Shown here in pieces: positions 3-13,776 of a stretch of DNA of 64,000 nt. The notes below the pieces were generated by a model. The model was not told the origin of the DNA. It worked only from the letters and a program-made list of their open reading frames with translations, and did no database searches. The DNA is from Eledone cirrhosa. Lineage: Eukaryota. The position numbers and the translations under genes were made by a program. Every line of letters begins with the position of its first letter. The first letter of the stretch is position 1. The stretch is from NCBI GenBank assembly GCA_964016885.1, contig OZ024741.1, positions 94,054,001 through 94,118,000 of the forward strand. Reading direction: 5' to 3'.

Positions 3-304
3 CAATCCTCTAATACAGATCCATCAGAAACGTGCTTGTACGACACGGCAACAACCCTATTTATCTTCAATCGTTGGGATTTAGTTCGAGAAGAAGAAAG
101 GGAAACGGTGCATGAACACGTTGTGAAACGTCTGCTGCGGTGCTCTCAAGGCCTAGATACATCTGAAATTTTATTCATGTCAGCAACATCAGCGAAACGG
201 CAATTAGAAAACGGCTTTGTTCCTAGATCCTATGTAGACCTAATGAAAGGGATCAAGACGATGATGGAGAAGACTACATTTATTATACTAAAACGATTCT
301 ACAG
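3..304 (+). CDS. Dynamin/mitofusin-like GTPase-pseudokinase gene (DSTYK-like architecture): first exon in window, 5' boundary uncertain
   Basis: Open frame containing LFIFNRWD (G4-like motif of mitofusin/bacterial dynamin-like GTPases) and ILFMSA. Donor AG|GTTGAG at 304/305 is phase 2 and matches the next exon, giving RFYRWLNYM. Confidence 0.75.
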
Positions 305-529
305 GTTGAGTATAATTTCTTGTCCCGATTTTAACTTAAATTTTGATGTTACTTGACACTTACAACATTCTTAATCATATAAGCTAAGTAAATCATCCTA
401 AAGATGTCTGTCATTAAATGGCAGTTAAAATAGCGTGCAAGCGATATTAGCTACCATAGAACAATTGTTAGATTGCGTAGTATAATATGTATTTTAAAAC
501 ACTTATACAATTATATATGTGAGGTCTAA

Positions 530-668
530 TGGCTGTGTGGTTAAGAAGTTCACTTTGTAGTTGCGTGGTTTCAGATTCCACCCTACGGTATGCTGCCTTC
601 GGTAAGTGTATTGTACGATGCCCTCGGGCCGACCAAATTCTTGTGAGTGAAATCTAGAAGATAAAAAC
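530..668 (+). mobile_element. tRNA-derived CORE-type SINE, decayed
   Basis: A-box-like ggctgtgtggttaag, a B-box remnant, and a body that matches the reverse-strand copy at ~13117-13290. Confidence 0.55.
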
Positions 669-1181
669 CTATCAGAGTGACTGTCCCTGTTTTTGAGCGG
701 TAGACTTAATTCGTCGCCTGATTATACACCAACATATGACTCTTGGGTGTCATTAGCAATGCCTATTCTATTTGTGCCAGGACAACTTCCGCCTTTCTAA
801 CTCACCTTTTTCGGAAAAGGCCACCAAAAGAGTTATGAACGCTGCCCATCTAAGCTATGAAAAAACAAAACAAAAAAAAACAAAACATATTAGCTGCAGT
901 TGATGTCTATTCTACCATTTTTCATAAATATGAAAAAAATAGCGAAAGTATTGTTGCAACTCCCTTCTATGTAAATTACTCAACTTCCAAAATTCTAAGT
1001 AGAATCTCTAAACTTTCGTACAGAAACAGGTCAATCGTTTTTGGAGAAAGAAATTATAAGAACATGAATATATAATAAATATTCTAATAATTCACCTCAT
1101 TTCTAATTTCCTTGTTTTACGTAAAAGCATATTTTATCTAAAGACATTTAAATATATAAAAATAGTTTCCTTTCTCTAAAG

Positions 1182-1514
1182 CAGAGGTTCTCGAACTTTT
1201 TGGACCTCCCCCCCACGGTTACGTAATACCCTAACGCCTCCAACCCTATTTCCAGAAAGACCTGCCTACACATGAATTGTAAATAATAAATAGATAAAAT
1301 CGTTAATTTATATATAATAAAAATATAATATATACTGTGTATAAATAAATATATATTTTTTATTTTACTACATTTATATATAGTATGTATCATTTGATAT
1401 TTAATATACTATTGTATCATCTCTACCACCCCATCGCCCCCTTAGGCCGCAGTGCCCCCTGGACCTTCTCAATGCCTCCTGAGGGGGGGGTAGCACCCAA
1501 TTTGAGAACATCTG
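1182..1514. mobile_element. hAT (Charlie-like) MITE
   Basis: Imperfect TIRs cagaggttctcgaact / aatttgagaacatctg, flanked by an exact 8-bp TSD ctctaaag (1174-1181 and 1515-1522). Confidence 0.85.
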
Positions 1515-1565
1515 CTCTAAAGTATAAAAAACAAATATTTTCATAGTACTATTTTTCTTAAACAG

Positions 1566-1836
1566 GTGGCTAAATTATATGGTTTCTCGGAGTTTGCACC
1601 ACTGTAAGACATTGTTTAGTGGAGCTGACTTCTCTGAATATCAGCAGAAGCAAAGGTTCCAGGAAGCTGAGAAGAAATTGAATATTTTAGAGAAGAATTC
1701 TGTAGAAATATTCCAGGAATTACGAGACAGTATTGATGCAGAAGAGACAAGATTGAAGCAATGTTTAACAGAGCAGCTTCAGTCTCCAGATATTCAGAAT
1801 AAAATATATTCCTTTGAAAACACAGAAATTGACTTT
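1566..1836 (+). CDS. Same gene, helical/coiled-coil exon
   Basis: Acceptor tttttcttaaacag ends at 1565; donor GTAAGC at 1837; phases 2/0 are frame-consistent with both neighbours. Confidence 0.8.
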
Positions 1837-1974
1837 GTAAGCCGTTTCTTCTTTAAATCTTAATTATTAGTTCGTACGATTACATAATAAGAAATAATTT
1901 TTGTTTAGCTCTAAATGTTAAGTATCACGTTTCTAATATTATATTACTTGTTAGAAATGTAGGCTTTTATTTAT

Positions 1975-2104
1975 ATGCATACACACGTACATACATACAT
2001 ATATACATACATGCACACATACATACATGCACACATACATACATACATACATACATACATACATACATACATACATACATACATACATACATACATACAT
2101 ACAC
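1975..2104. repeat. (TACA)n microsatellite
   Basis: Direct inspection; similar tracts at 3858-3936 and 31731-31830. Confidence 0.95.
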
Positions 2105-2124
2105 GCATTCATATTTATATCTTC

Positions 2125-10868: not shown

Positions 10869-11442
10869 TGGGTATTTACGAAATCAATCACTGTTGTTAG
10901 CCTAGTGGTCACACACAACGAATTGATTACGGTCAAATATTTATCACTCAATGAAAATCAAACAAACAGTTATTCGATGAGAGGTGACTCAATAGATATG
11001 ATGAATTGACAACGACACCCGAATAAAATGGGAGGGATTTAATTGATAAAAAAACATTAATAGTCATCCATATATGTATATATATTTCCCTCCTTTCGGC
11101 CTTACCATTTGCACGACTCGTTAACACCATATCCTGTCGTGTTTCCAGTCAAGAGACACTCACTTTTGGTTCCCCGTTTCTATGCCGTGCTGTCTCTCAA
11201 ATGTATCTTTCCGGTGGCTTGTTCTAAGCCGTTGTGCAATCTAGACTCAATATCATACAATACCATCCTTATGGATGACATTGCATTATGCAGTGGGTGG
11301 TTGAAGAGGAAGTTGGATGTTCGTTCGTTCGTCCCACTTATTCTCTCTCTCTCTCTCTCTCTCTCTCTCTCTCTCTCTCTCTCTCTCTCTCTCTTTCTCT
11401 CTCCCCCCTCTCTCTTCATATATATATATATATATATATATA

Positions 11443-11575
11443 TAGTAATAATAATAAATTTGAAGACTAAAATCCAAAGAAGGTTCGATAAGGAAAAATA
11501 TATATCAAATATATAAGAACCCTAGAGCAAATATTTATTAAAATAACAGATTAAACTTTAATCTGTTATTTTAAT
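11443..11575 (-). mobile_element. Solo Penelope-like terminal fragment with small fold-back
   Basis: Reverse complement of 21165-21272, the 3' end of the Naiad-like element; abuts (TA)n. Confidence 0.65.
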
Positions 11576-11704
11576 TATCTATCTATCTATCTATCTATCT
11601 ATCTATCTATCTATCTATCTATCTATCTATCTATCTATCTATCTATCTCTATATATATATGGATTGAGAGGGACGAGGCTGCATGTTTACTGATAACGAG
11701 TGTG

Positions 11705-12508
11705 AGAAAGTAAAAGGACACAAACAAGAGATGGACTTTTTCCCTTCATCAGTTAACTACTACGGGCCACAGACGTTTTAGCGCATTATAGACAATACAT
11801 CTATCCGTATGGCGCCCATAGATTTTTATCTATCAAAAAGCTATGAGGTAAAGAAGCGATAGCGAAAAGAGAGAAAGAAAGAAAAAAAGAGAAAAAAGGG
11901 AAAAAAGGAAGAAAACATATCGATAGAAGGTGGAAACAGGACAATGGTACATGTAAGTAACCGGAAGGAGAGAGAAGACTAAGTTAAAAGGAGGCAGTTG
12001 GGTTTAAGTTCAGGGGCCATATTAACAGCGGAGAGATGAGAGAAACACGCCTATTCTCAGTGAAACGGGCGCAAAGAGAGAGAAAGACGGAGGAAGCAGA
12101 AGTGGTAAGGGGGCAGAGAGAGAGAGAGAAAGAGAGAGGTGGGGGAGGGTAAAAAGACAGAGGGGATGAGTATGAGGGATAGAGAGAGAAAGGGAGTCAA
12201 TCCAAAAGGGTGGTAGGACATAAGTCTGACCAGGGTAAACAAAACAAGCGAGATCGATAGAGAGAAAGGGAGAGAGAGAGAGAGAGAGAGAGAGAGAGAG
12301 AGAGAGAGAGAGAGAGAGAGAGAGAGAGAGAGAGAGAGAGAGAAAGGGAGAGAGAGAGAGAGAGAGAGAGAGAGAGAGAGAGAGATGGGAAAAGAGTTGA
12401 TCCAAAAATCTCGGTTATTTACTATAATGCGCTGAAATATCTGTGACTCGTAGTAGACAACTGATGAAGGGGAAATGTCCATCTCTTCTTTGTGTCCCTT
12501 TACTTTCT
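11705..12508. repeat. Inverted repeat, ~85-bp arms (11705-11790 / 12423-12508)
   Basis: gaaagtaaaaggacac...cccttcatcagtt...gcgcattatag is mirrored by ctataatgcgc...aactgatgaaggg...gtgtccctttactttc. Confidence 0.75.
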
Positions 12509-12752
12509 ACTATATGTATGTATATATATTATATACTGCGAGGAAACAAACGTTAGATGATGAAGATATTGATGATTTATATTTGCGGAATACACTGACA
12601 CTTAAATGGTATCTTAATAAACAAACGCGTTACTTATATCTTATACTATATGATATGTACGTATGTGTGTAGATCTGCAGGTTTCCGTAAATGTTAACTA
12701 ACGTCATGGTGAAAGCAGCAACTGTTTTTCTAATTATTATCTCTATCTTCAG

Positions 12753-12993
12753 ATACCTACACCACGAGTCTGTAGCGAAATTCATAGAAACTATATCGAC
12801 AGAGAACTCAACCCCATCTATTTTATTTGATGAACGCCTATTTTCGCTACGATGTAGAACAAATAACATAAGATATCGACCGCTGGTATCCAAAGATATG
12901 TATCCTATTTTCATCGAAAATATTATTTCCGGTCTGGTTTATATTCACTCTAAAGGACTTACACATCCTGAAATATCATTGGACAGTGTCATG
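12753..12993 (+). CDS. Same gene, kinase subdomains IV-VIb (degenerate catalytic loop)
   Basis: Acceptor ctctatcttcag; encodes LHHESVAKF...SGLVYIHSKGLTHPEISLDSVM; donor GTGAGT at 12994, phase 0. Confidence 0.85.
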
Positions 12994-13116
12994 GTGAGTT
13001 TGAAGCTTATATACATTCTTGTATTATTTTACTTGTTCCCCATAAAGGGATATAAACACAGACATACACAAACGCAAACACGTGCGTGCACACATACACA
13101 TATATATCTATATATT

Positions 13117-13290
13117 TATATATACGGTGGGCTTTTGCAGCTTTCGCCAGTGCAATTCCATACACAAAGCATTGGTCAACCCGAGGCTTTAGTAGAAGAC
13201 ACATTTCCGAAGCGGAACTGAACACAAAACCGACTGGTTTGAGAAAGAACTCAGGAACTCTTTAACATTTCAGCCACACCGGTGCCTGTA
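13117..13290 (-). mobile_element. CORE-type SINE, decayed
   Basis: Reverse-strand match to 530-668; tRNA-like head ggtgtggctgaaatgttaaag. Confidence 0.55.
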
Positions 13291-13404
13291 TATATATATA
13301 TAGTTTATTTAATGTTGAAAAATATATTGAATGTAATGTGAAATACAAATAAATTTAACAGAAAAAAACATCATGTTTATTACATTTTTCATATCTGTTT
13401 ATAG

Positions 13405-13776
13405 ATTAACTGGCATCAACAAGTGAAACTAATTGGAATGGCGTTACCACGTAAAGTGAATATTTTGGATATGGATCAGCCGATTCATGACAATATGTAT
13501 CTTGCACCGGAAGTTCTAAATGGAGGAGTATATGAACCACCAGCAGATGTGTTTGGTTTCGGACTCTTGATTTGTGAATTGTACATAAAAAAGAAAGTCT
13601 TTTTAGACAAATCACACTTATCTGTTTTACAATTTTGTGAGACTGTTGATACAAGTGAAGTTGAATACTTCGAACTCATTCCAGACACGTACAAGAACTT
13701 AGTGTTAAACATGCTTAAAAAACAACAGAGTGAGAGATTCACGTCAAACCATATTTGGAAATGTCTTAGCAACTAA
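13405..13776 (+). CDS. Same gene, terminal exon: kinase C-lobe
   Basis: Acceptor ctgtttatag; encodes VKLIGMALPR, YLAPEVL and ADVFGFGLLICEL; TAA stop; AATAAA at 13924 and 14387. Confidence 0.85.
   Translation: MNWHQQVKLIGMALPRKVNILDMDQPIHDNMYLAPEVLNGGVYEPPADVFGFGLLICELYIKKKVFLDKSHLSVLQFCETVDTSEVEYFELIPDTYKNLVLNMLKKQQSERFTSNHIWKCLSN

Follow-up and report, generated by a model that had tools for sequence, protein, structure and literature searches.

Pseudokinases often regulate active relatives. In the kinase–pseudokinase pairs JAK JH2/JH1, HER3/EGFR and STRAD/LKB1, a dead kinase regulates a live one, and in the ROCO GTPase-kinases a GTPase gates a kinase. Among dynamin-like proteins (DLPs), the bacterial DLP of Nostoc (BDLP, 2j68/2j69), mycobacterial IniA and the mitofusins/Fzo1 combine a G domain carrying motifs G1–G4 with helical neck and trunk bundles. 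Other bacterial DLPs, such as Campylobacter Cj-DLP1 and Cj-DLP2, are encoded by two divergent, adjoining genes; such paired proteins form heterotypic complexes or oligomers, and tetramerization triggers the GTPase activity of Cj-DLP1/2 (PMC6104087). Here we describe a gene from Eledone cirrhosa that combines features of these systems. Its 3′ part lies in a 64,000-nucleotide (nt) stretch of contig OZ024741.1 (hereafter C2; assembly GCA_964016885.1, positions 94,054,001 to 94,118,000), which we call the window; the window starts at C2:94054001, and the gene runs on its plus strand. The predicted product is a GTPase of the BDLP/mitofusin type that also has a stalk and a kinase fold; having lost its HRD and DFG aspartates, this kinase domain is classed by sequence as a pseudokinase. 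A paralogue with intact kinase motifs lies head-to-head with it, and we favor, at even confidence, the reading that the window protein is the non-catalytic partner of this neighbor in a GTP-gated heterodimer.

The comparison with the described systems reveals likeness as well as difference. The window protein has the G domain, neck and trunk of BDLP, IniA and the mitofusins, but it carries no hydrophobic paddle or transmembrane segment, and it contains additional N-terminal helical modules and a C-terminal kinase fold. As in Campylobacter, two divergent DLP genes adjoin each other. Here, however, the genes are from an animal, stand head-to-head 40 kb apart, and are each fused to a kinase fold (one intact, one apparently dead). 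The likeness to JAK, HER3, STRAD and ROCO is one of proposed regulatory logic, and in the present case each partner would bear its own dynamin-like GTPase.

The complete gene comprises 10 exons that encode 1008 amino acids (aa) without an internal stop codon, with GT–AG borders at all nine introns. An earlier note on this DNA had described an intact gene with six in-frame exons of about 685 codons inside the window. This description holds: the six exons form the 3′ part of the gene (685 codons plus stop, in frame, no internal stop, with GT donors and AG acceptors), except that the first of them begins 34 bases before the window. By searching 150 kb of upstream DNA we found four further coding exons, all on the plus strand. 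Exon 1 (C2:94030700-94030987) contains the ATG and codes for two helical modules of about 45 aa, and exon 2 (C2:94050321-94050531) for neck helices. Exon 3 (C2:94051100-94051383) carries G1 (GETGAGKS) and G2 (CTST) and matches Dynamin_N with 37.8 bits (cut-off 27); exon 4 (C2:94052412-94052561) carries G3 (DSPG). The P-loop region that the earlier note had suggested looking for upstream is thus present with the full set of motifs G1–G3.

The remaining exons are also encoded on the plus strand. Exon 5 begins at C2:94053967, fills window positions 1 to 304 (3-304 in the six-exon chain), and codes for G4 (NRWD, 69-80) and the last part of the G domain (aa 312-424). Exons 6 (1566-1836, aa 425-514) and 7 (2892-3077, aa 515-576) code for neck/trunk and trunk helices, respectively. 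Exon 8 (7995-8680, aa 577-805) covers the stalk tip, the returning trunk helices and the kinase N-lobe, including ITIRK (8613-8627) and the αC residue Glu800, so that the junction between stalk and kinase falls inside a single exon. Exon 9 (12753-12993, aa 806-885) contains the kinase hinge and the catalytic loop HPEISLDS (12964-12987), and matches Pkinase on its own with an E value of 0.011. Exon 10 (13405-13776, aa 886-1008) contains GMA (13435-13443) in place of DxG, followed by LAPE, DVFGFG and the stop codon, and matches Pkinase with 49.2 bits (cut-off 31.7). The first AATAAA, a possible polyadenylation signal, is found at window position 13924, 148 nt past the stop codon. The helix-extension-helix-like module of about 45 aa opens nearly all inspected members of the family and is doubled in exon 1 of the cephalopod dead-kinase gene. 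A fold search with this module returned no clear match: the best hit was the C-terminal part of T4 EndoVII (Z 6.1), and the helix-extension-helix domains SAP, Rho-N and CDNF scored within the noise (Z 4.1-4.5).

Splicing of this gene is documented by a single 2537-nt contig of run X1, a set of contigs from one study whose RNA nature we infer from the spliced form. This contig carries exons 3, 4, 5 and the whole of exon 8 without mismatch, and its coordinates match the gene model to the base. Two joints, 3-4 and 4-5, are directly visible and show GT..AG borders. All four loose ends of the contig coincide with modeled exons: two match the ends of exons 2 and 7, and two match the starts of exons 6 and 9 (30 nt of the latter). 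The spacing equals exons 6 and 7 exactly. For junctions 1-2 and 6-7 the support consists of length, and the modeled junction 9-10 is continuous in the orthologues. Since exons 3 to 5 and exon 8 occur on one spliced contig, the GTPase and the kinase N-lobe are parts of one spliced molecule, as the proposed join of the two halves had implied. A search of the same genome found no second copy or allele of the gene.

The closest proteins are those of Octopus sinensis and O. bimaculoides (61% identity), Argonauta (54%), and two proteins from assembled contigs (46%), one of which clusters with Sepia pharaonis. All are full-length proteins with Dynamin_N and Pkinase matches and display the same changes in the kinase motifs ([IV]TIRK, HPE[IV]SLD[SN] and G[MV][AG]). 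The direct orthologues LOC115216741 (O. sinensis) and LOC106877344 (O. bimaculoides) are known from automatic annotation as "uncharacterized", so the domain architecture as such is already visible in databases; six locus ids of uncharacterized proteins of this kind occur in no paper of the literature we searched. Two database models appear incomplete: P0003 (Argonauta) is short of about 11 residues ahead of G3, and two stalk segments are missing from P0038 (O. vulgaris). Compared with decapod orthologues, identity amounts to 59-60% in the G domain, 41% in the stalk and 48-49% in the kinase. The octopus–decapod split has been dated to about 275 million years ago (PMC9068888). Conservation of the kinase at this level over such a period indicates purifying selection, as judged from protein sequences. 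Orthologues from Octopus, Argonauta and cuttlefish all have the dead-kinase motifs, and proteins of abalone, bivalves, amphioxus and a hemichordate show a related signature. This pattern points to an old subfamily under selection rather than to decay. The idea that the gene is a duplicate in decay, or that its exons line up by chance, has nothing in its favor beyond the lost motifs. It is refuted by the open frame, the spliced contig and the full-length orthologues with 46-61% identity and the same motif changes, and we give it practically no weight.

To characterize the fold, we used a predicted structure of the O. sinensis orthologue, computed with a 76-row alignment, in place of the window protein itself (mean predicted local distance difference test, pLDDT, 81; predicted template modeling score, pTM, 0.78). 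The G domain of this orthologue is recognized by Dynamin_N with 67.3 bits (cut-off 27). The best Foldseek match of the model is Nostoc BDLP (2j69, E 2e-18), followed by IniA, Cj-DLP chains and mitofusins. Superposition on 2j68 using VIA aligns 558 residues (Z 20.2, root-mean-square deviation 5.5), and neck and trunk bundles flank the predicted G domain.

What the window protein lacks is the hydrophobic end of the stalk. For comparison, we assembled a family set by a profile search of 1.84 billion representatives, from which the best 150 listed matches and earlier matches gave 190 sequences; 91 of these were kept after filtering by coverage and length and removal of 7 near-duplicates or partial forms. 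We counted a stalk tip as hydrophobic if a 19-residue stretch at the paddle position reached a hydropathy of at least 1.8, a threshold set in this analysis. By this measure, neither a hydrophobic paddle nor a transmembrane segment is present in the window protein, whose hydropathy peaks at 0.78 in the tip and at 1.38 over its full length. In the 91-row set, a hydrophobic tip is present in 0 of 21 rows of the window lineage, 0 of 15 rows of the neighbor lineage and 40 of 52 other rows, with three near-duplicates, likewise under the threshold, excluded from these counts. Where most relatives have the hydrophobic segment, the window protein contains RRxSxxSxxS (8037-8066, plus strand). R591, R592, S594, S597 and S600 are invariant in all seven cephalopod rows and fall in a region of low pLDDT in the orthologue model. 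By its consensus, this segment is a possible phosphorylation cluster. The motif [RK]RxS is found at the tip in 12 of 21 window-lineage rows vs 0 of 15 neighbor-lineage rows.

These observations weaken the earlier suggestion of mitofusin-like membrane remodeling. A remodeling or tethering GTPase similar to BDLP or mitofusin, with a basic amphipathic tip that binds lipid and a pseudokinase that serves as an accessory docking domain, would fit the BDLP fold predicted across the whole neck and trunk and the basic helix predicted at the tip of the orthologue (residues 607-620). It would also fit a report that mammalian DSTYK resides at late endosomes and lysosomes and enlarges them upon overexpression (PMC6981171). 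On the other hand, the low tip hydropathy sets the window protein apart from most relatives, and the paddle of BDLP is reported to mediate lipid binding and to need hydrophobic residues to do so (PMC2862293). We therefore consider this function unlikely.

The C-terminal domain of the orthologue model is a normal bilobed kinase fold (residues approximately 722-1001), which VIA superimposes on Hck with a Z score of 23.1 (root-mean-square deviation 3.1, 251 residues aligned). All motifs that the earlier note had listed for the window (NRWD, ITIRK, HPEISLDS, GMA, APE and DVxxFG, and no Gly-rich loop) are present as described. In comparison with the neighbor, HRDLKMEN is replaced by HPEISLDS and DVG by GMA, so that both the HRD and the DFG aspartates are lost. 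The GxGxxG loop, the catalytic-loop Lys and Asn and the Mg-binding Asp are absent. In β3, Arg786 aligns with the Lys column and is followed by Lys787, and the αC residue Glu800 is retained. The proposed pseudokinase thus proved to be a conserved domain, apparently under selection, with changes that are common to its orthologues. Glu800, His876, Glu878 (in the column of the catalytic Asp) and Arg901 match the consensus in all 23 lineage rows. These invariant residues, together with the Arg-Lys sequence in β3, could suggest that the fold has been rewired to an atypical chemistry or to nucleotide binding. This possibility is very improbable in our view, given the missing Gly-rich loop, catalytic-loop Lys and Asn and Mg-binding Asp; the invariant Glu and Arg might just as well keep the site closed.

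In four of four species pairs, divergence of the dead kinase is about 1.5-1.7 times that of the active one. Faster evolution, and a family with many, divergent members among marine invertebrates (91 full-length proteins, most from a set clustered at 50% identity), would suit an immune decoy or effector in which the dead kinase serves as bait for pathogen enzymes and the GTPase carries out the response, as modeled on Mx/GBP proteins and plant decoy pseudokinases. The gene, however, is single-copy in this genome, with one orthologue found per cephalopod species. An Aplysia immunome paper, in its available part, names only Mx-like proteins and classical dynamins (PMC9334734). Nothing was found for the role in immunity that the earlier note had raised, with at least two family members in this genome, and we judge it quite improbable.

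How old is the loss of kinase motifs? According to our rule set, 45 of the 91 rows have intact kinase motifs, 37 share a common dead signature, and 9 have other patterns. The dead members retain the G1 Lys, the G3 Asp and the G4 Asp in 37 of 37 cases and have lost the DxG Asp in 37 of 37, a loss that is part of the class rule. Their HRD-Asp column contains Glu in 27 and Asp in 7 of 37 rows, and their β3 column contains Arg in 24 rows and Lys in 12. The dead members that could be assigned to an animal belong to cephalopods, Haliotis, Argopecten, Sinanodonta, Branchiostoma and Saccoglossus. The window protein fits the catalytic loop of this subfamily, H-x-[ED]-[LIV]-[ST]-x-D-[TS]. In quick trees of 54 of the 91 rows, the kinase without its motif columns yields a branch with support 99 that separates all 26 dead rows from the others. 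The rest of the protein places them in two to three groups, and a single clade is not rejected (p 0.685). A FastTree of the G domain alone, with a weak backbone, did not group the dead-kinase members. A single origin of the dead-kinase subfamily is therefore likely, not proven, because fast-evolving rows can attract each other. The subfamily place of the Trichoplax row is unsure because it meets P0006 as a long branch in the kinase tree. Separate apparent kinase deaths occur in coral and soft coral proteins (P0011, P0013, P0015, P0016 and P0017; HRHLKLEN, HQNLKLEN and HKHLTLEN), which are nested among active cnidarian members.

The earlier note had proposed that the pseudokinase may regulate an active paralogue. 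We found that such a paralogue exists in this genome and that it is linked to the window gene. It is encoded upstream on the minus strand (C2:93990619-93871173; 13 exons, 984 aa, modeled from genomic sequence), in head-to-head orientation with a distance of 40,081 bp between the two ATG codons. Its G motifs are intact, as are its kinase motifs GTGSFATV, VAMK, HRDLKMEN, DVG and APE. A partial, diverged duplicate of its exon 7 lies within one of its introns (C2:93890006-93889899, minus strand). Own-genome searches returned two matches to the P-loop exon and two of two candidates for the G3 exon, that is, at least two family loci, one live and one dead. Dynamin_N gave at least 10 matches including both family loci; both counts are lower bounds. 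We take the other eight to be dynamin, Drp1, EHD, mitofusin, OPA1 and a SLIP-GC-like GTPase. The window protein and the neighbor are about 18% identical overall and 32% identical in the G domain. Six of the nine introns of the window gene occur at the same column and phase in the neighbor. Two of these lie in the kinase, which shows that the fusion of GTPase and kinase predates the split of the two genes.

Indirect evidence suggests that the pairing is not confined to Eledone. Orthologues of both genes have consecutive accessions in O. vulgaris (CAI9728025/CAI9728026) and Argonauta (GAB1601229/GAB1601228). Consecutive accessions are also found for a dead/live pair of Haliotis cracherodii (XP_071083349-50/XP_071083351), the one same-species dead/live pair among 10 proteins chosen for naming; clade alone guided the choice of the abalone rows, whose names were learned afterwards. 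In H. rufescens, the longest contig of both copies has the same size (2,013,603). We also considered a recent tandem duplication at the level of cephalopods, but joining the cephalopod members of both lineages is rejected (approximately unbiased test, p 1.5e-5). Linkage therefore seems to have survived the rearrangement of coleoid genomes (PMC9068888). In the trees, the molluscan-type group of the window gene (14 rows) has support 97-98 in both, and the group of the neighbor (11 rows) has support 99-100. Joining both molluscan groups is weakly rejected on the kinase (p 0.034) and not rejected on the rest (p 0.128). From these data, it is likely that the two-gene pairing has been kept since early molluscs.

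Three points lead us to favor a GTP-gated heterodimer: the copy number of 1:1, a linkage that is old, and the absence of the paddle from both proteins. In this mechanism, GTP binding would bring both proteins together by way of G domain or stalk contacts, on the model of the paired bacterial DLPs. The pseudokinase would thereby be placed beside the kinase of the neighbor and could switch or hold it, and GTP hydrolysis would reset the pair. Without paddles, the pair may be soluble, or it may be recruited to membranes by other proteins or by the basic, phosphorylation-controlled tip, without inserting itself. Gene structure, splicing, motifs, conservation and the linkage in this genome are observed, and the fold is predicted from the O. 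sinensis orthologue; we infer GTPase activity, kinase death, contact and the direction of regulation.

Several observations weigh against this reading. Outside this genome, linkage consists of accession order and equal contig sizes rather than DNA, and the pairs of O. sinensis and O. bimaculoides agree in contig size but not in accession order. Corals cluster family members too (four Oculina proteins on contigs of the same size), so that the genes may simply have stayed side by side after an ancient tandem duplication. With 40 kb between them, the two ATG codons are too far apart for a compact shared promoter. A dead and an active protein of Branchiostoma lanceolatum, which are not an orthologous pair, reside on contigs of different sizes. 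Finally, independent loss of the hydrophobic tip is not established because a single clade of both molluscan lineages is weakly rejected on the kinase and not rejected on the rest. The main rival reading draws on some of the same points. It holds that the window protein is a stand-alone homodimer or scaffold whose pseudokinase binds other partners or folds back and regulates its own GTPase, and that linkage is a fossil of tandem duplication. The identity of about 18% to the neighbor, the distance between the ATG codons and the coral clusters would be expected on this account, as would the dead-kinase members of amphioxus and a hemichordate, which appear there without a demonstrated partner. 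The pTM of the orthologue model also suggests that the kinase packs on its own chain. It accounts less well for the adjacency indicated in octopods and abalone even though coleoid genomes were rearranged (PMC9068888), for the absence of a hydrophobic tip in both lineages and for the 1:1 copy number in this genome. We regard the stand-alone scaffold as possible but doubtful.

The earlier note had compared the gene with DSTYK (dusty kinase, also RIPK5 or SgK496). This protein is similar in size and layout to the window protein, is its Atlas look-alike at 0.93, and lends its name to some relatives that databases label "DSTYK-like". The window gene is probably not DSTYK, since it lacks the catalytically intact kinase expected of that protein. 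A search with the last exon of the neighbor identified a better candidate at C11:10458046-10545915 (minus strand). Its kinase motifs are intact, and its P-loop position is degenerate and reads GQSIYTKS. Exons upstream of this kinase align with the profile of the family in the expected order, with weak E values of 0.01-0.7 in a small local search. Atlas gave this gene no name, and DSTYK-like is our assumption from its kinase motifs. In Atlas, DSTYK clusters rank just below the Dynamin_N-kinase clusters, and no Dynamin_N is listed for them. With a dynamin-like part that looks dead, the C11 gene is a mirror image of the window gene, and three states seem to coexist in this genome: GTPase motifs intact with kinase dead (window), both intact (neighbor), and GTPase degenerate with kinase intact (C11). 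DSTYK is discussed without mention of dynamin in the available part of PMC9573974, and of eight papers that name both DSTYK and dynamin, none deals with structure as judged by title or abstract start. We tentatively extend the heterodimer to an obligate molluscan two-gene module in which the paddle-less GTPases heterodimerize on GTP and bring the pseudokinase onto the active kinase, with a live/dead split dating to early animals and DSTYK as the third state. If true, this scheme would explain the unassigned N-terminal half of DSTYK.

The rest of the window contains four minus-strand exons, two of them nearly identical, at 31107-31694, 37154-37939, 38609-39226 and 62899-63513. They contain a DIVFVLDxSxS-type motif, which we take to mark von Willebrand A domains, likely of one collagen VI/matrilin-like gene that converges on the window gene. 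Retrotransposon copies of the long interspersed nuclear element (LINE) type occupy approximately 4100-6930 (plus), 21980-26917 (minus), 48016-53624 (plus) and 54887-57722 (minus); the copy at 48016-53624 contains long open frames of 488, 311 and 840 aa.

Among the papers listed by our literature searches, which had subscription papers and supplementary kinome tables outside their scope, we found no description of the family, the dead subfamily or the pair. If our reading is correct, these genes encode an apparently undescribed animal signaling module in which the cycle of a dynamin-like GTPase is coupled to regulation between a kinase and a pseudokinase. With two family loci found, one live and one dead, as opposed to many in corals and bivalves, this cephalopod would offer a clean test case. 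A further suggestion concerns the human disease gene DSTYK, which in structural terms may be read as a family relative in which the kinase was retained and the GTPase given up.

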